Source of the DNA: an uncultured Flavobacteriales bacterium
GTDB taxonomy: Bacteria; Bacteroidota; Bacteroidia; Flavobacteriales_E; Vicingaceae
Reading direction: 5' to 3'
Assembly (NCBI GenBank): GCA_913048175.1
Contig: CAJWVX010000001.1
Coordinates: forward strand, 12,051 to 76,050
Length of the DNA stretch: 64,000 bases
Below, piece after piece: positions 8,787 through 64,000 of the stretch (positions are counted from its first letter, which is position 1; each line of letters starts with the position of its first letter). The notes beneath the pieces were generated by a model, which saw nothing but the letters and a program-made list of their open reading frames with translations, was not told the origin of the DNA and searched no databases. The position numbers were made by a program, and so were the translations under genes.

Positions 8787-9896
8787 ATGATAGTTGAATT
8801 AGATATTGAATCACTCATTAATTTCTTATCTATTGCGATAGGGTTTTTTTTAGCCATCCATTTTTTAACATTAAGAGGAATTAATAAAAACTCAAATCTT
8901 TTTTTAGGATTGTTTTTACTTCAAGTTTCCATTTCAGTTTTTATTACTCAGGTTGAGTTCCTAATTGTTGAATCTAATAATATTAGATGGCTTTTTTTAC
9001 CGATAATTTCGCCATTTGCATATATGCCTATACTTTATTATCATTCATTGTCAATTACTAACTTGTTTAAAGCAAATGGGAAGAAAATGTTATGGATTTT
9101 TATACCAGCATTGATAGAATTGTGTTTAAAACTTGTGCTGTTTCTATTTTATCCTAACCTAACGTTAGGAGATGATTTTTTTAATAGCTATATATATATA
9201 ACCTTATATTTATCAACAATATATAGCCTATTTATTCTATACTTGTTATTAAAGATTATTAAGATCCATAACGCAAATATTTTAAATCTCTTTTCTACTA
9301 TAGAAGATAAACAGCTTAATTGGTTAAGGCTTTTGTCAATAGTAAATATTGGGTTTAATGTTATCTGGTTTTTAGATGATAGTTTAGTGCTTTTAGGAGT
9401 AGGAAATCCTGTATCGCATTTTATTGCTGAGTTTTCACTTTTTGGAACGCTCATTAATATTTGTTGGATGGGCTTTGCAAGCTTAAGACAGCCCTCTATA
9501 TTTAAACTAGATATTGACAAATATACATCAGACAAAAAAAGTAATTCAACCATAGAGGATGAATTATTGTTTAGCCAATTTAAATTACAAATAGAATCTG
9601 ATTTTATTTATCTAAAATCAGATTTAACCTTAAAAGAATTAGCAAATGAATTAAATACAAGAGATAAAGAACTCTCTAGAATTATTAATTTATGCTATAG
9701 CCAGAACTTTTTTCATTTTATTAATTCTTATCGAATTAACTACTTTAAAAAGCATGTAAATAATCCTGATAAAAAGAATCTAAGCATAGAAGGGTTAGCC
9801 TTTGAAGCTGGGTTCAAATCTAAATCAAGTTTTTATACTGCATTTAAAAAAATTGAAAAAATGACTCCAAAAGAGTTCGAATTGAGTATAAAATAG
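8787..9896 (+). CDS. AraC family transcriptional regulator with N-terminal multi-TM sensor domain
   Basis: 369 aa with about 6 hydrophobic helices in the first 230 aa. The C-terminal AraC HTH reads LTLKELANELNTRDKELSRIIN ... EAGFKSKSSFYTAFKKIEKMTPKEF. Confidence 0.85.
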   Translation: MIVELDIESLINFLSIAIGFFLAIHFLTLRGINKNSNLFLGLFLLQVSISVFITQVEFLIVESNNIRWLFLPIISPFAYMPILYYHSLSITNLFKANGKKMLWIFIPALIELCLKLVLFLFYPNLTLGDDFFNSYIYITLYLSTIYSLFILYLLLKIIKIHNANILNLFSTIEDKQLNWLRLLSIVNIGFNVIWFLDDSLVLLGVGNPVSHFIAEFSLFGTLINICWMGFASLRQPSIFKLDIDKYTSDKKSNSTIEDELLFSQFKLQIESDFIYLKSDLTLKELANELNTRDKELSRIINLCYSQNFFHFINSYRINYFKKHVNNPDKKNLSIEGLAFEAGFKSKSSFYTAFKKIEKMTPKEFELSIK

Positions 9897-56509: not shown

Positions 56510-58252
56510 TTATTTTTTCACTAAACGAACCTTACTATTTTTTTTGCCTGATACAATTGTAACGATATAAACTCCGGGTGGTTCATTTAATGTAAATTTC
56601 AAATATTTTCTATTCCTGTATGTTTCCGTTAGTATTTGTTTGCCAACCAAATCACTAATAGTAATAGTTATTAAATTATATTTTTCTTCTAAGGCAATAG
56701 AAAAGTTTCCTCTTGTTGGATTAGGGTATATCAAGTTTTTATTGTCTGAGCCCTCATTTTTCACAATCGACACTGGCAAATTATAACAAGGAGAAATAGC
56801 GTTCATATGCATAACATTCCATGCAGTTTCGTAGCCAATTTTATGAGCCATCCAAGTTCTCCATCCAACAGAATCTAAAGGCATAAGATCGCCTTCCAAT
56901 GCACAATCGCTAGTAAGAATAGTGTACATATAAGTTGCTATAGCTTTGTTAACATCTCCACTTAAATGCCAATTGTCACTATAAATTTCTACTCCTGGTA
57001 TTTCTTCTAACATCTGAGCTATCAAAGTTCGTAAGGGAACATTTCGAGCGTAAGGTAATTCAAACTGATTAAGCATCTGACGGGCTGTTCCTAAATCTGT
57101 TTCAACATCACCTGTATTTCTTCGTTTATCTATGCCGTACAACATTGTAACTAACCCTGTACTTTTATCATCTTGTAACGGGTAGCCAAAAGAAAAGTCA
57201 AATATTAAAGAATCAATATTGTACAAGTGGGTAGACCCCATACTAGACCTACCGTAATTAAAGTGTGTAGGGGAACTATTACTATATTGAAGTGTTTTTT
57301 GATCCTCTGCAACTACCCATTGCAAACCATTAAGGATCCCATTCTCGGTGCTAGTTCCTTCGTGGTTATAAATAAGATTTTGGTCGCTAATCTCGCAACT
57401 CTTGAATGGAGAAATGAAGGTTCTATTTCCAATATAATGAACCTGACTAATTTGATTAATCAAGGTAGATTCTGTAATGTCTGCAATTGAATCATCATAG
57501 GAATACAAAGATGATGAAGCACTTTTGTTTAATAGAGAAGAGTAAATTGATGCTGCAACTAAGTATGACCCGTTTGGTGTTGGATGCAAGTTTGAAGTAT
57601 CTTTTTTACTAGTTGGCAAAGCATCCCAAGCAAGACCAGCAGGTATAGTTTGTAGTTGAACTTTTGCCCCGTCTGAAGTTCTATATGTAAATTCTTCGAA
57701 ATGATTTATAGATGTTCCATCATTAGACCATGTCATTAATAATAGTGGTATAGCGCCACCTTCTGTAACTTTTGCTGCAATTTTGTTTACACCTAAAGAA
57801 TAGTAACCAGGCATTTTAGATACGATAAAAGGGTCTGCACCAATTATAACATAGTCCCAATCTATACCATTGTTTCCAGTTAAATTGTTCATCCTTGCGT
57901 CATTTCCATCAGGCCAATAGTAGTATTGAGAAAGAGAATGGCAATAATAATTTCGGTTTGCTGTAATTGAGCCAGCAATTCCAGTAGTAACACTTTTGAT
58001 TTTATAAATATCTTCTGCTACAATATTTATATTGATAGATAAAGAAGTATCTGCCGATAAAATATTCTGTAATTCGTTGGTGATTTGGTTTGGTGAAAAC
58101 TCATCAAAATTATTCTCTATCGAATTACTTGTCCCAATTACTAAAACATTTAAAGTTCCGTCTCCATTAATATCTAAAATTTGTGCCTGCAATACTAATG
58201 ATCCCATTAAACAAAATAACGCGAGATAAGTCTTTTTTAATTTAATTACCAT
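56510..58252 (-). CDS. T9SS-secreted protein with SGNH/DUF4886-like N-terminal domain
   Basis: 580 aa with a signal peptide. VLVIGTSNS ... LHPTPNGSYLVAASIYSSLL resembles SGNH-like hydrolase folds. The C-terminal IYPNPTRGNFSI ... GVYIVTIVSGKKNSKVRLVKK is a T9SS CTD. Confidence 0.65.
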   Translation of the reverse strand: MVIKLKKTYLALFCLMGSLVLQAQILDINGDGTLNVLVIGTSNSIENNFDEFSPNQITNELQNILSADTSLSININIVAEDIYKIKSVTTGIAGSITANRNYYCHSLSQYYYWPDGNDARMNNLTGNNGIDWDYVIIGADPFIVSKMPGYYSLGVNKIAAKVTEGGAIPLLLMTWSNDGTSINHFEEFTYRTSDGAKVQLQTIPAGLAWDALPTSKKDTSNLHPTPNGSYLVAASIYSSLLNKSASSSLYSYDDSIADITESTLINQISQVHYIGNRTFISPFKSCEISDQNLIYNHEGTSTENGILNGLQWVVAEDQKTLQYSNSSPTHFNYGRSSMGSTHLYNIDSLIFDFSFGYPLQDDKSTGLVTMLYGIDKRRNTGDVETDLGTARQMLNQFELPYARNVPLRTLIAQMLEEIPGVEIYSDNWHLSGDVNKAIATYMYTILTSDCALEGDLMPLDSVGWRTWMAHKIGYETAWNVMHMNAISPCYNLPVSIVKNEGSDNKNLIYPNPTRGNFSIALEEKYNLITITISDLVGKQILTETYRNRKYLKFTLNEPPGVYIVTIVSGKKNSKVRLVKK

Positions 58253-58536
58253 ACTAAATCGTTTTTAAAATTGATAGTTCAATTTTATCATGTAAACGAA
58301 TATATTTAGAAATGGTTGCCAATGTAATTGTTAGATTAATTTAAATAAATCTATTATTTACTGATTATCAATAATTTATAGTAGGGTGTGTAATTTATTA
58401 AATATTTATTGTTTAATAATAATCATAAATCGTTAAACAAAATGTATTTTTATAGTGTAATATAAATAATATTATTTCTAACTATTTTAAGCTAGAAACT
58501 AATTATGATTCACATTACTTAGTTACTAATATTTCA

Positions 58537-58824
58537 ATGACAGATACAAAACAGTTTACAGAAAGAGAACTTGACAGAATCATAGAAATGGCTTGGGAGG
58601 ATCGAACACCATTTGAAGCTATTTTGTTTCAATTTGGATTACCCGAAAAGGAAGTTATTAAGGTGATGCGTGCAAATATTAAAGAATCTAGTTTTAAGCG
58701 ATGGCGCAAAAGGGTAAATAGTGGCGTAAGTAAGAAGCATTTAAATAAAAGAAGTGCAGAGATTACTCGTTTTAAGTGCTCTCGTCAACGGGCAATTTCA
58801 GGAAATAAAATAAGTAAACGATAA
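58537..58824 (+). CDS. TIGR03643/DUF2805-like small basic protein (photolyase-associated family)
   Basis: 95 aa. IIEMAWEDRTPFEAILFQFGLPEKEVIKVMR...FKRWRKRV matches my recollection of this family. It is the first gene of the photolyase operon. Confidence 0.65.
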   Translation: MTDTKQFTERELDRIIEMAWEDRTPFEAILFQFGLPEKEVIKVMRANIKESSFKRWRKRVNSGVSKKHLNKRSAEITRFKCSRQRAISGNKISKR

Positions 58825-59940
58825 ATGGAGTTATTTGAAAAAGTCTCCATGTTTCCTACTTCTTATGTTGAAGTTCTTCAACGCGTTCGCAAGATTGATC
58901 CTATCAAGTATGGCTCATCTCGAAATTATATAAATGGCTCTGTTTCTTATCTATCGCCTTATATTTCAAGAGGCATTATTTCTACAAAATTTATATTTTC
59001 TGAAATGATGAATAGGGGGTATGAACCTCCTCGAATTCAAAAGTTTATTCAAGAATTAGCTTGGAGAGATTACTGGCAACAGGTTTGGATTGCAAAAGGA
59101 GATGGTATTAATCAAGATTTAAAACACGATCAAAAGCCTGTTTCATCTATTGCTATTCCAACAGCAATTGTAAAAGCCAATACAGGTATTGAAGCGGTTG
59201 ATAAAGCTATTCAAGCATTTTATCAAACAGGTTATATGCACAATCATTTGAGAATGTATATTGCATCTATTACTTGTAACATGGGACAAAGTCATTGGAA
59301 ATCTCCTGCTCAATGGATGTATTATTATTTGTTAGATGCCGACTGGGCAAGCAATGCATTAAGTTGGCAGTGGGTAGCCGGAGCCAATGCCAACAAGAAA
59401 TATGTGGCCAATCAAGATAACATCAATAGGTATTGTTTTACAAATCAAAAACATACGTTCTTAGATGTACCTTATGAAGCGTTTGCTTTTATGCAAATTC
59501 CTGAAGTTTTAAAAAATACTATTCCATTCGCATTAAAAACCGCTTTGCCAACCCAAAAAGAAATAATAATAGATGAAGCCCTTCCAACCTATATCTATAA
59601 TTTTTATAACCTAGACCCCATTTGGGGAGAAGAGATTGTTGCAAATAGAATTCTATTATTAGAACCGACTCATTTTGAGCAATATCCTATAGCACAAAAA
59701 TCGATTGATTTTATGCTTCAATTTTCCGAAGAAAATATATCTAATATTCAGATTTACATAGGTGAATTTAGTGCTTTTAATAAAGTTTATAATTCTACAA
59801 CTATTCACTATAAAGAGCACCCCTTAAACAATCATTATAAAGGGATAGAAGAATCTAGAGATTGGATGTTTGAGGTGAAAGGTTATTATTCCTCTTTCTT
59901 TTCTTTTTGGAAAAAATGTAAAAAAGAGTTGGACTATTGA
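58825..59940 (+). CDS. Photolyase/cryptochrome-superfamily protein with N-terminal FAD domain (inverted topology, NewPHL-like)
   Basis: 371 aa. FAD-domain motifs [34 protein letters not shown] and [16 protein letters not shown] all fall within residues ~35-200. No N-terminal alpha/beta domain precedes them, and ~150 aa of extra C-terminal sequence follows. Confidence 0.7.
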
Positions 59941-61409
59941 AAGAGCAAACGATAAATATTGTTTGGTTGAAGCGCGATATTCGTTCACAGGACCATGAGC
60001 CTTTATTAAGGGCAGAGCGAGCTGGTATACCCTATCGAATTGTTTATTTATTTGAACCTTCTTTAATTGAATATCCAGATACAAGCTTGAGACATTTACA
60101 GTTTGTTTACCATTCTATTTTAGCCTTAAATAAGACTTTGGCTTCTTTTAACAGAAGTGTTACTATTTTTTATGGAGAAGCTATTGATGTATTTCAATAC
60201 CTTGCAGCAGACTTTGATGTTAAAACTATTTTTAGCTTTCGTGAAAGTGGAACTCAAATAACTTGGCAACGGGATAAACAAATAAAACGGTTTTGTAAAC
60301 AACATCATATAGAATGGCAAGAATCACAACGGGATGGAATTTTGAGAGGGATTAAAAATCGATACGATTGGAGTAAACAATGGCATCAATCAATGCACCG
60401 ATCAGTTCTTCAAAATAATTATTCTATCGCTCAAGAAGAACCAATTTTACATTCCTTTTTATTGCCTGAAAAATTAATTGTTCAACTTAATGCATACCCA
60501 GAACAATATCAACCGGCTGGTGAACAGAATGCTTGGCGCTATTTAAAATCATTTGCTAATAAAAGAGGTTTTAACTATCAGAGGCACATTTCAAAACCTA
60601 CTGAAAGTAGAACTGGTTGTAGTCGACTATCTCCTTATTTAGCTTGGGGAAACTTGAGTATTAAGCAAGTATTTCACTTTATAGGAACACATCCTAATGG
60701 AACAAAAAATAGTAGGGCTTTTTCTGCAATGTTGACTCGATTGCATTGGCATTGTCATTTTATTCAGAAGTTTGAAGTAGAATGCAGTTATGAAACCGAA
60801 TGTGTTAATAGTGGCTATGAACTTTTATCCCATGAAAAAAAAACTGATTTTTTAGAAGCTTGGAAAAACGGTACAACAGGTTACCCATTAATTGATGCTT
60901 GTATGCGAGCTGTTGCAGAAACAGGCTGGATTAACTTCCGAATGCGCGCTATGGTAGTTTCTTTTTTAGCATTAAATCTCGATCAAGATTGGAGAGACGG
61001 AACCTACCATTTAGCCAAACAGTTTTTAGATTATGAACCTGGTATTCATTATCCGCAGTTTCAAATGCAGGCAGGTACAACTGGTATTAATACAGTTCGT
61101 CTTTATAATCCTGTGAAAAATTCTCAGGAACATGATCCTGAAGGCGTTTTTATAAAAAAATGGATTCCAGAACTCAATAAGGTTCCAAAAGCTTTTATTC
61201 ATGAACCTTGGATAATGACGGCAATGGATCAACTATTTTGTGAAGTAACTATTGGTAAAGATTATCCCTTACCAATTGTAGATTTACAAGAAAGTGCACG
61301 ACTTGCAAGAGATAAAATTTGGAGTCACAAAAAGCATCCTGCAGTACAAAAAGAAAAAATGCGTCTGCTAAATACTCATGTAAATAGAACTCATAATGGT
61401 TTACACTAA
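59937..61409 (+). CDS. Cryptochrome/deoxyribodipyrimidine photolyase family protein, canonical domain order
   Basis: 490 aa. The N-terminal alpha/beta domain reads [16 protein letters not shown]. The FAD domain has [24 protein letters not shown]...[26 protein letters not shown] and [22 protein letters not shown]. The TTG start overlaps the upstream stop. Confidence 0.85.
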
Positions 61410-62028
61410 AAATGACATTGAACAACTTGACCGTATTACTCGATTAAAGCTTATTAATTCGGTTACTGGCATTAAGCCTGCAAATCTTATTGGTACAATC
61501 TCAGATAAAGGAGATGCTAATTTGGCAATATTCAGCTCGATTGTACACTTAGGTAGTAATCCTGCTCTTTTAGGTTTTATATCTAGACCTAAAACTGCAG
61601 AGGTAGGACACACATTCCGTAACATTCAAGAAAATGGTTTTTATACGATTAATCACATCCAACCAGAATTTGTTAAAAATGCTCATTATACTTCAGTCAA
61701 ATTTGCTGAAGATATTTCTGAGTTTGAACAATGCAAGCTTTCTGAAGAATATATCAATAATTTTAAAGCACCCTTTGTAAAAGAAAGCACATTTAAAATG
61801 GGTATGCGCTTTAAAGAGTCTGTAGACATTAAATTGAATGATACAATGATGGTTATTGGAGAAATAGAAAGTATTATATTTCCCGATAAAGCACTAATAA
61901 ATGGAGATATTGATTTAGAATATACAAATGGTGTTGGTATTTCTGGGTTAAATAGTTACTATTCTTTAAAAAAAATTGCCAATTATCCGTTTGCTAAAAT
62001 AAATGAGTTGCCAGATTTTACAACATGA
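61396..62028 (+). CDS. Flavin reductase-like (FMN-binding split-barrel) domain protein
   Basis: 210 aa. [44 protein letters not shown]...[17 protein letters not shown] fits the Flavin_Reduct pattern. It overlaps the upstream gene by 14 nt. Confidence 0.65.
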
Positions 62029-62159
62029 AAAAAGTAAATCTTCCCATAAAGAGCTGTTTGGTTTGCAAGTTGAACTTTACTTGGCGAAAAAAATGGGAGA
62101 AAAATTGGGCAGATGTAAAATATTGCAGTGAGCGTTGTAGAAGAAATAAAAAAAAATGA
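62025..62159 (+). CDS. DUF2256-like 44-aa Cys4 zinc-ribbon protein (not in ORF track)
   Basis: Encodes [44 protein letters not shown], with the CxxC...W.KKW...VKYCSERCR pattern. ATGA overlaps occur at both ends (62025-62028 and 62156-62159). Confidence 0.7.
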
Positions 62160-63649
62160 AACAAATCAATATCCTTTTTCCGAATCAATTGTTTGAAAAG
62201 TCTCCACTTTTTGAAAACAAGGCACCTTTTTATATTGTTGAGGAATATTTATTCTTTAAACAATATAAGTTTCATAAACAGAAAATAGCTTTTCATAGAG
62301 CAACTATGAAGTGTTATGCTGATTATCTTCGTAAACAGGAAAATATTGAAGTCCATTATGTTGAAGCAATAGAAACAATTTCTGATATCCGATTACTTAT
62401 TCCTGAGTTAAAACGGCAAGGAGTTGAAAAGATCAATTATATTGATCCGGTAGATAATTGGCTTCAAAAAAGATTAAATAAGGGCTGTTTAGAAAACAAT
62501 ATTTCAACCTCGGTTTTCGATTCTCCATTATTTTTAAATACCAAAGAAGATCTCGCGCCATTTTTTAGAGGTGATAAAAAGAAATATCATCAAACCACCT
62601 TTTATACTGATCAACGTAAAAAGCGGAATATATTAATGGAACAAGATGGAAAACCTACTGGTGGTAAATGGACTTTTGATACAGATAATCGAAAGAAATA
62701 TCCTGCTAAAAAACTACCTCCATCTATTCAATACCCAACTGTTAACCAATATTACGAAGAAGCTAAAGCTTATGTGTCAATGCACTTCTCTAATCACTTA
62801 GGAAGTCTTACAGAGTATTTATTGTACCCAACCAGTTTTGAAGCAACAAAAGATTGGCTCAATCAGTTTTTTGAACAACGCTTTATGGAGTTTGGTGTAT
62901 ACGAAGATGCCATTGTTGCAGAAAATTCAATACTTAATCATAGTGTTTTAACTCCTATGCTTAATGTGGGTTTAATAACACCTAAAACAATTATTGAGGA
63001 ATGTTTATTATATGCTGAAAAGAATAATGTACCCATTAATTCTACAGAAGGTTTTGTGCGTCAGATAATAGGGTGGAGAGAATTTATAAGAGGTATTTAT
63101 GAATGTAGAGGAAGTGAAGAACGGACGACCAATTTCTGGAAATTTAAAAAGAAGATACCCGCTTCTTTTTATGACGGAACTACTGGGATTCAACCCATTG
63201 ATCAAACGATTAAGAAAGTATTAAAAACCGGTTATTGTAATCACATAGAACGCCTAATGATATTGGGAAATTTTATGATGCTCTGCGAGTTTGATCCAGA
63301 TGAAGTTTATCAATGGTTTATGGAACTTTTTATTGATTCATATGATTGGGTTATGGTAACCAATATCTATGGAATGAGTCAGTTCGCAGATGGGGGATTG
63401 ATGGCTACTAAACCTTATATAAGTGGTAGCAACTATATTATGAAGATGAGTAACTATAAAAAAGGAGAGTGGCAAGCTGTTTGGGATGGTCTGTTTTGGA
63501 GGTTTATGCATACCCATCGGGATTTCTTTTTATCCAACCCTAGATTAGGAATGTTGGTGAGAATGTTTGATAAAATGCCTGAGGAGAAAAAGCAGGCGCA
63601 TCTAGAAAATGGAGCAAAATATTTATTATCCTTAAAAGATTTAAAATAG
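62156..63649 (+). CDS. Deoxyribodipyrimidine photolyase-related protein (DPRP; PhrB/CryB-like bacterial (6-4)-type clade) lacking the Fe-S cysteines
   Basis: 497 aa with ILFPNQLF at the N-terminus, [46 protein letters not shown], and [32 protein letters not shown]. The CxxC...C segment expected after this last motif is absent. Confidence 0.8.
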
Positions 63650-63654
63650 GTCCT

Positions 63655-64000
63655 TTAAATAAAATTCGTTTTAAATAAACTATAGATAAATAATAAACTC
63701 CATAGAAAAGTTCTAATCCAGTTCTTATTTACTAGGGAAATTAGCATCTTTTTATTAACTTCTTTATTAGATATATTAAGGTGAATTGGAGCAAACTGTA
63801 TGAAAGTTGATATCCATAACACAATAATTATTAAAAGACTAATAAAAGTATACGTGTTAGGTTGAGTTATTAATTGACAGATAGAAATGCCGAGTTGACC
63901 AAACATTAACGGAATCACAATGAAGCTAAAGCTAGACATATATTTTTTATGCCACTTTATTAAATTTTCTGTTCTGTAATAAAGAAAACTGGGATAGATA
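63655..64000 (-). CDS. Membrane protein, partial (N-terminus beyond window end)
   Basis: The reading frame stays open upstream of the track Met (63939) to the window edge (...IYPSFLYYRTENLIKWHKKYMSSFSF...). There are several TM helices. The family is not assigned. Confidence 0.5.
   Translation of the reverse strand, partial: IYPSFLYYRTENLIKWHKKYMSSFSFIVIPLMFGQLGISICQLITQPNTYTFISLLIIIVLWISTFIQFAPIHLNISNKEVNKKMLISLVNKNWIRTFLWSLLFIYSLFKTNFI

Follow-up and report, generated by a model that had tools for sequence, protein, structure and literature searches.

A predicted six-gene operon of photolyase-family and accessory genes behind a shared inverted repeat in a marine flavobacterium

What does a bacterium gain from packing three genes of the cryptochrome/photolyase family (CPF), a flavin-reductase-like gene and two small genes into one uninterrupted row? 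The question is raised by positions 58537-63649 of a 64-kb stretch of DNA from a marine Flavobacteriales bacterium (GC content 30%), here called the window. An earlier note, made from the letters alone, proposed three photolyases for three types of lesion, strictly co-translated with three accessory proteins. We read the row differently, as one transcription unit of a photoprotection gene set that comprises two photolyases, a NewCRY-like protein, three helper proteins and an operator shared with other genes, and we put the probability of this reading at about 0.65. It draws on the gene content and families, the active-site status of the enzymes, the linkage of the genes across lineages, and the motif and placement of an inverted repeat upstream. 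For genes 1, 3, 4 and 5 we infer all of the biochemistry.

Six genes without intergenic space

Direct reading of the sequence gave six open reading frames (ORFs), all on the + strand and each where the earlier note had placed it:

Gene 1, 58537..58824, + strand: 95-residue basic DUF2805/TIGR03643 protein, from profile matches
Gene 2, 58825..59940, + strand: 371-residue predicted NewPHL/SPL photolyase, FAD domain at the N-terminus and putative Z-domain at the C-terminus
Gene 3, 59937..61409, + strand: 490-residue two-domain CPF protein with a NewCRY-like remodelled active site and a TTG start
Gene 4, 61396..62028, + strand: 210-residue split-barrel flavin-reductase-like protein of the 3fge family
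Gene 5, 62025..62159, + strand: 44-residue DUF2256 Cys4 zinc ribbon
Gene 6, 62156..63649, + strand: 497-residue protein of the prokaryotic (6-4) photolyase family, Fe-S-less subtype

All five junctions are also as described. The TAA of gene 1 abuts the ATG of gene 2 (58822-58827), genes 2 and 3 share a TTGA overlap (59937-59940), genes 3 and 4 overlap by 14 nt (61396-61409), and the last two junctions are ATGA overlaps (62025-62028 and 62156-62159). Across the whole window, the gap is 0 or less in 10 of the 32 same-strand neighbour pairs, so tight packing is common in this genome; five gap-free junctions in succession are unusual even here. The TAA/ATG junction and the rare TTG start of gene 3 within the TTGA overlap are each kept in five of six operons across genera, and the overlaps are conserved among Flavobacteriaceae. 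Gene 5, which according to the earlier note the ORF track had missed, is overlooked on five identical public contigs too, where a wrong-frame ORF of 42 residues (62003-62131) is called instead. The NCBI annotation of Zobellia calls the DUF2256 gene correctly.

The single strand, the lack of internal gaps and the gene order conserved across genera are features of an operon, from which we infer co-transcription of the six genes as one unit. The -7 promoter consensus of Bacteroidota is TAnnTTTG. Between 58113 and 64000 it has zero occurrences on either strand, where the density in the window (89 in 64 kb) predicts about eight; this is consistent with no internal promoters, and the absence may reflect selection against them or chance. 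Scans for sigma-70-type promoters and for terminators gave counts at or below shuffle expectation, and an Rfam scan of 58000-64000 matched no family, hence no known riboswitch. The next gene is convergent with gene 6, and their stop codons are only 5 nt apart, too close for an intrinsic terminator to fit.

Two predicted photolyases and a NewCRY-like protein

Profile searches placed all six products above curated cut-offs in the families that the earlier note had proposed, and each of these is, as it said, already named. Pfam matches below are above the gathering score.

Gene 2 contains FAD_binding_7 only (residues 74-193 of 371) and no DNA_photolyase antenna domain, and its alignments to PDB structures begin at chain residues ~240-255. 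It has the same inverted topology and conserved cyclobutane pyrimidine dimer (CPD) site as NewPHL/SPL (Emmerich 2020, PMC7736829; Xu 2021, PMC8476157). Following the list of CPD-site features in PMC8476157, we located E77, W80, N140, M144 and W183, the equivalents of E274, W277, N341, M345 and W384; all are invariant in 11 orthologs, as are the FAD-site residues and W158 and W181 (W359 and W382), the two tryptophans that this class retains. The C-terminal region of ~170 residues carries invariant W267, G353, S357, F358 and W362 (G-Y/H/D-Y/F-x-S-F). We set it against the published description of the NewPHL/SPL Z-domain, about 150 residues with a conserved Trp and a GFF motif. Gene 2 lacks a four-Cys motif, and the Bacteroidetes NewPHL/SPL subgroup (Ba) is published as lacking the four cysteines (PMC8476157). 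Judged by these residues, gene 2 belongs to the NewPHL/SPL photolyases and has kept what CPD repair requires, and the enzyme is expected to repair CPD lesions in single-stranded DNA (ssDNA). Published NewPHL/SPL biochemistry covers alphaproteobacterial and actinobacterial members only, whereas gene 2 comes from Bacteroidota. In the predicted SPL and FeS-BCP operon of Cyclobacterium marinum, too, an SPL gene shares its operon with a DPRP-family gene, as gene 2 does here; unlike the window, the published NewPHL/SPL systems have no accessory genes or NewCRY partner described.

Gene 6 matches DPRP (182.3 bits, E = 1.6e-53). It aligns end to end with the Vibrio cholerae (6-4) photolyase (PDB 7ykn, E = 4.9e-78), matches PDB 4dja at E = 1.2e-66, and aligns over its full length with the Agrobacterium and Rhodobacter prokaryotic (6-4) photolyases as well. 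In the 7ykn alignment it keeps, within NHIERLM and KPYISGSNY, the equivalents of the catalytic His366 and of Leu370, Tyr424 and Tyr430, all essential in PhrB (PMC4619345); where W342 and Y391 would align, it has Tyr and Phe, respectively. The earlier note's description of a PhrB/CryB-like protein without Fe-S ligands holds: ligand 1 is Pro, the CxxC pair falls in a 10-residue deletion, and ligand 4 is Val. Gene 6 thus shares full-length homology with the FeS-BCP references (PhrB, CryB and the (6-4) enzyme of V. cholerae) but lacks their Fe-S cysteines, and we rejected the FeS-BCP subtype because the four cysteines of the [4Fe-4S] cluster are missing. Among the fetched loci, the Fe-S-less clade comprises 21 sequences (gene 6 and those of 20 other loci), compared with 13 classical four-Cys sequences. 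Such proteins have been put at 7% of the prokaryotic (6-4) photolyase family (PMC4619345), and a Fe-S-less 'subgroup M' that includes Prochlorococcus PromaPL is already described (PMC9178010). Gene 6, which likewise lacks the cysteines, is best classed as a prokaryotic (6-4) photolyase of this known subgroup, a membership assigned from the missing cysteines and not from phylogeny.

Gene 3 has the canonical domain order that the earlier note gave it, DNA_photolyase followed by FAD_binding_7; its implied identity as a canonical CPD photolyase did not stand. Relative to E. coli photolyase (1dnp), the substitutions are E274R, N341F, N378H, W382F and W384M, and two of the three Trp-triad residues (W382 and W306) are lost. 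The replacement residues are kept in all 20 orthologs, down to 42% identity, with Phe or Leu at the W382 position. A class I CPD photolyase was rejected on E274, N341, W384 and the Trp triad and on the score against the Phr equivalog PRK10674 (166 bits; cut-off 506), and a Cry-DASH on the score against TIGR02765 (146 bits; cut-off 317). That the replacements persist throughout the clade points to a conserved function different from CPD repair instead of decay. NewCRY has been characterised as a two-domain CPF protein lacking E274 and N341 (PMC7736829), and gene 3 shares with this NewCRY/VcCry2 class the canonical two domains and the absence of both residues, a likeness drawn from the class description. 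It is, on this evidence, NewCRY-like, that is, cryptochrome-like rather than a third repair enzyme: ordinary CPD repair is excluded by the conserved active site, which would suit a flavoprotein with a sensing role or other chemistry. The activity of VcCry2 itself is disputed, and one study calls it an ssDNA photolyase (PMC5241685).

One further feature of gene 3 is residue 370, a strictly conserved His at the position of E. coli N378. In the E. coli enzyme N378 faces flavin N5, and other CPF classes carry Asn, Asp or Cys there. The description of the NewCRY/VcCry2 class does not mention a His at this position (PMC7736829).

Three accessory genes and their neighbourhoods

Gene 1 matches DUF2805 (114.5 bits, E = 2.8e-33) and TIGR03643 (110.4 bits; cut-off 66.55) and is 83-94% identical across Flavobacteriia. 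Its AlphaFold2 (AF2) model is helical, with a predicted local distance difference test score (pLDDT) of 71, and Foldseek found no match to it better than E = 0.9. A DUF2805 profile search of PDB gave no match either, and the weak Pfam matches for DUF2805 at E > 0.09 are noise. With no fold match to a model of this pLDDT, a helix-turn-helix cannot be claimed. The family description of TIGR03643 may already mention adjacency to photolyase genes.

Gene 4 matches Flavin_Reduct (PF01613) with 57.2 bits (gathering score 27, E = 2.7e-15). It is ~50% identical to PDB 3fge (E = 1.1e-49), an uncharacterised structural-genomics 'putative flavin reductase', and distantly related to flavoredoxin (E = 1.3e-07). 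Identity across Bacteroidota families is 70-77%, and the family carries an invariant signature of its own. A GDH motif marks the HpaC-type NAD(P)H:flavin reductases; in gene 4, N-D/G-T holds the position before the conserved GEI, and we rejected an HpaC-type NAD(P)H:flavin oxidoreductase for want of the motif. The gene 4 flavoprotein would most plausibly supply or maintain reduced flavin for the CPF enzymes of the operon, or handle the flavin or pterin cofactors of these enzymes. A reductase that keeps photolyase FAD reduced, as the earlier note suggested, is possible.

Gene 5 matches DUF2256 (71 bits, E = 9.1e-20). The family keeps 64-77% identity and 21 invariant columns from Bacteroidota to Proteobacteria, Cyanobacteria and the green alga Coccomyxa; conservation this high is unusual for a 44-residue protein of unknown function. 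A profile search of 1.84 billion representatives returned 2440 matches, and the top 150, all of at most 124 residues, include no informative fusion. The AF2 model (pLDDT 82) finds its best fold matches, weak and below significance, in YacG and an FCS zinc finger. The likeness to YacG, an FCS-type zinc-finger inhibitor of DNA gyrase, rests on this weak model match (E = 0.68, TM score 0.54), with no homology at the sequence level; both proteins have a second zinc knuckle of the (F/Y)CSxRC type. The zinc ribbon is most plausibly a small DNA-binding or enzyme-binding adaptor. For none of the three accessory proteins was a role found in the literature searched, in agreement with the earlier note.

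Are these genes neighbours of photolyase genes elsewhere? Scanning metagenomes with a DUF2256 alignment gave 80 loci, of which 41 carry a CPF gene, 29 of them within 300 nt; when only loci with long flanks are counted the share is similar (19/40 and 11/23). A rough chance expectation, from typical gene counts and a handful of CPF genes per genome, is well under 1%. The accessory genes are therefore linked to photolyase-family genes far beyond chance, as the earlier note expected. In 32 loci the gene that follows DUF2256 immediately downstream is a CPF gene, the two often overlapping by 4 nt, and the commonest adjacencies are gene 5 to gene 6 (20), gene 4 to gene 5 (16), gene 3 to gene 4 (12), gene 5 to a DASH-like gene (12) and gene 1 to gene 2 (8). 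In Undibacterium the order is MerR, DUF2256, photolyase and DPRP with DUF2805 nearby, and DUF2256 is CPF-linked in Glaciecola as well. Gene 4 adjoins another cluster member in every locus examined.

The six-gene order is identical in four other loci: a metagenome-assembled genome (MAG) and Patiriisocius (L007 and L008), a further metagenome contig (L044) and a cultured Zobellia (L097). Elsewhere the cluster is modular, its genes reordered or dropped: Aquimarina keeps genes 1 and 4, Formosa genes 1, 3 and 4, and Saprospiraceae genes 3 to 6 with gaps of ~180 and 84 nt. A second cluster type (L017, L026, L031 and L091) runs TetR-like gene, ABC1 kinase, Flavin_Reduct, SDR-DUF2867, DUF2256, DASH-like gene, four-Cys DPRP, NewCRY-like gene, orf161, DUF2805 and folE. 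One cluster type thus carries NewPHL and the other DASH, which agrees with the published mutually exclusive distribution of the NewPHL and DASH ssDNA photolyases (PMC7736829).

Several side observations concern these clusters. In L026 (1978-5998; also L017 and L091) a TetR_C_23 regulator, an ABC1 atypical kinase and a short-chain dehydrogenase/reductase (SDR) fused to DUF2867 are encoded together, the regulator lying behind the inverted repeat described below; SDR-DUF2867 recurs in L010, L020, L031 and L086. On a contig binned as Chloracidobacterium sp. (Acidobacteriota; L011), genes 2, 4, 5 and 6 are flavobacteria-like, at 53-61% identity, with gene 1 ~1.2 kb downstream, the result of either horizontal transfer or a binning error. 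In Erythrobacter (L015, 7001-7611) DUF2256 overlaps by 4 nt the start of holC, which encodes the chi subunit of DNA polymerase III, with no photolyase nearby, suggesting a broader DNA-related role.

An inverted repeat and the question of a regulon

Two elements lie upstream of gene 1:

58410..58439, no strand: inverted repeat TGTTTAAT-N14-GTTAAACA, 30 bp, candidate operator over the -33 promoter region
58444..58453, + strand: GTATTTTTAT, an imperfect -7 box 4 nt past the inverted repeat, the putative operon promoter

The pattern TGTTTAAY-N14-RTTAAACA was derived by aligning the regions upstream of the clusters, where GTATnTTTAT, similar to the -7 consensus, comes 4 nt after it. In the window, the repeat at 58410-58439 is the only match with at most two mismatches, and looser matches occur at chance level. 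The repeat also lies upstream of the cluster in L007, L009 and L097, and GTAT-TTTAT is invariant in an alignment of the upstream regions of the window, L007, Zobellia and Formosa. When up to one mismatch is allowed, 17 sites occur in about 0.78 Mb of non-redundant loci, whereas 20 dinucleotide-preserving shuffles averaged 0.1; 13 of the 17 are independent of the sequences used to build the pattern, and all 17 are intergenic. At nearly all of them a TAnnTTT(G/A) box and then the next gene follow, the box facing that gene. The genes so preceded are the gene 1 operon, folE, PTPS, the TetR-headed operon, orf161-DUF2805-folE, gene 4 and gene 6; the PTPS site sits in a divergent intergenic region common to an amine-oxidase gene. 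No description of the motif was found in the literature searched.

Since the repeat abuts the -7 box and covers the place of the -33 element, this geometry suggests that it most likely binds a repressor, and transcription probably starts just 3' of the box. Its recurrence before other units of the neighbourhood and before rearranged clusters of other Flavobacteriia indicates that these genes probably form one regulon, and the shared repeat suggests that folE and PTPS belong to it. Gene 1 would be the only candidate for an operator-binding regulator encoded within operons of this type. The inducing signal is most likely light, by analogy with a related operon: in Dokdonia MED134, a predicted operon of three CPF genes, MED134_10201/10206/10211 (DASH cryptochrome, DPRP and photolyase/cryptochrome), is up-regulated by light (bioRxiv 10.1101/2023.12.25.573297).

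Dokdonia MED134, too, is a marine flavobacterium in which a single predicted operon contains several CPF genes, and an operon of several CPF genes under plausible light control is a known kind of system. The Dokdonia-like contig L026 has the CPF order of MED134 (DASH-like, DPRP, NewCRY-like), with Flavin_Reduct, DUF2256 and DUF2805 genes flanking the three, and has the inverted repeat found in the window. In the window NewPHL replaces DASH, a Fe-S-less DPRP replaces the four-Cys DPRP, the gene order differs, and the TetR, ABC1 and SDR-DUF2867 genes of Dokdonia-type clusters are absent. The Dokdonia paper names the three CPF genes only, neither the accessory genes nor the operator. Neither the linkage of three uncharacterised families to CPF genes across phyla nor the shared operator was found in the literature searched.

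Several observations weigh against our reading. The -7 box of the operon is imperfect, with A instead of the final G. Light control would apply here by analogy with Dokdonia, where the cluster belongs to the other (DASH) type. No homolog of the TetR-like gene at the head of Dokdonia-type clusters is present in the window, and the DUF2805 model matches no DNA-binding fold. The unit itself is loose in places: gene 4 persists with gene 1 alone or with genes 1 and 3, the overlaps are lost in Saprospiraceae, and DUF2256 is near no CPF gene in about half of its loci, nor in Erythrobacter or Calothrix. Gene 4 is without the motif expected of an NAD(P)H-dependent reductase of the HpaC type.

How do other explanations fare? 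On a model built from the earlier note, CPDs in ssDNA, CPDs in double-stranded DNA and (6-4) lesions are divided among the three CPF enzymes, whose FAD is kept reduced by the reductase; the two small proteins direct the enzymes or control them, and the stoichiometry follows from strict translational coupling. Genes 2 and 6 suit the first and the last of the three lesion types, gene 4 is tightly linked to CPF genes, the overlaps persist among Flavobacteriaceae, and an external reductant is conceivable because NewPHL has only two tryptophans and photoreduces weakly (PMC7736829). The division of labour fails at gene 3, which has lost E274, N341, W384 and the proximal Trp in a conserved manner and scores 166 bits where PRK10674 demands 506; lacking the repair residues, it removes one of the three photolyases for three lesion types. 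Strict co-translation does not stand either, given the gaps in Saprospiraceae and the shuffled or missing genes elsewhere, and the absent GDH motif speaks against the proposed reductase. We regard this model as decidedly improbable. A second alternative places the accessory genes, as members in their own right, in a general regulon for light or photo-oxidative stress, and they simply happen to be packed beside CPF genes, comparable to the sigmaE-ChrR and MerR regulons of Proteobacteria. Free flavins are photosensitisers. On this account gene 4 would buffer or reduce them, and DUF2256 and DUF2805 would have general DNA-related roles. The operator common to folE, PTPS and amine-oxidase-like genes, the nearby glutathione peroxidase, the DUF2256 genes that stand alone or overlap holC, and the occurrence of genes 4 and 1 without genes 5 and 6 all agree with it, as does the blue-light regulon of V. 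cholerae, which mixes CPF genes with stress genes (PMC5241685). It accounts poorly for DUF2256 lying immediately upstream of a CPF gene, very often with the 4-nt overlap, in loci from three phyla or classes, and for gene 4 never being seen without a cluster member beside it; we consider it unlikely.

The proteobacterial sigmaE-ChrR and MerR/LitR regulons respond to light or reactive oxygen species and, like the regulon proposed here, combine CPF genes with oxidoreductases; their sigmaE promoter is TGATC-N18-CGTAT, whereas the window has an inverted repeat over a Bacteroidota-type promoter. A bolder form of the photoprotection reading would be a dedicated light regulon of marine Flavobacteriia acting through TGTTTAAY-N14-RTTAAACA, with gene 3 as photosensor, DUF2805 or another cluster-encoded DNA-binding protein as its partner, and gene 4 as the long-sought dark reductase that holds photolyase FAD in its active, reduced form in vivo. 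This is a long shot.

On our preferred reading, a photoprotection transcription unit, the ties of DUF2805, DUF2256 and the 3fge group to photolyase genes across phyla make them candidates for in-vivo cofactor maintenance or enzyme targeting. Gene 3 is a candidate for a bacterial cryptochrome, since its clade strictly conserves an active site of a non-repair kind. The operator shared with the pterin genes folE and PTPS offers a handle on light regulation in proteorhodopsin-type flavobacteria.

The surroundings extend this picture. In L001 (12260-16846), a locus that reaches past the window end, the convergent small membrane protein is followed by glutathione peroxidase, GTP cyclohydrolase I (folE), a CDP-alcohol phosphatidyltransferase, a PTPS-family pterin synthase and an amine-oxidase-like flavoprotein. 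In Zobellia (L097, 11761-15532) most of this downstream synteny is kept, with folE not among the genes called there; folE adjoins the cluster in L007, L017, L026, L031, L086 and L091. The folE/PTPS neighbourhood may point to the provision of pterin or folate, for instance to serve a methenyltetrahydrofolate (MTHF) antenna. Upstream of the operon lie a RapA-like helicase, a 2-oxoglutarate-Fe(II) oxygenase and a divergent protein with a type IX secretion tail. Eight marine metagenome contigs, Tara Oceans assemblies among them, encode a protein identical to that of gene 4, and a genome scan with the gene 4 protein gave five loci, the nearest genome being a Flavobacteriales MAG.

Further inverted-repeat sites, by locus and position, are:

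L001: 14096 and 15512
L007: 15001 and 15563
L097: 14178
L026: 1918 and 10475
L017: 7056
L031: 4833
L043: 102
L086: 2356
L091: 1893 and 10479

In Zobellia, Formosa and probably Aquimarina, a DUF6435 gene and a DUF2452 gene head the operon, between the inverted repeat and DUF2805; both are absent from the operon of the window. The pairs are:

L097, 5547-6128: DUF6435/DUF2452 gene pair
L098, 6630-7210: DUF6435/DUF2452 gene pair
L009, ~9080-9663: probable DUF6435/DUF2452 gene pair, the Aquimarina case

At the other end, the ORF of 94 residues at 63655-64000 (- strand) is the 3' part of a 139-residue membrane-protein gene cut by the window end, with only a weak match, to DUF6526.

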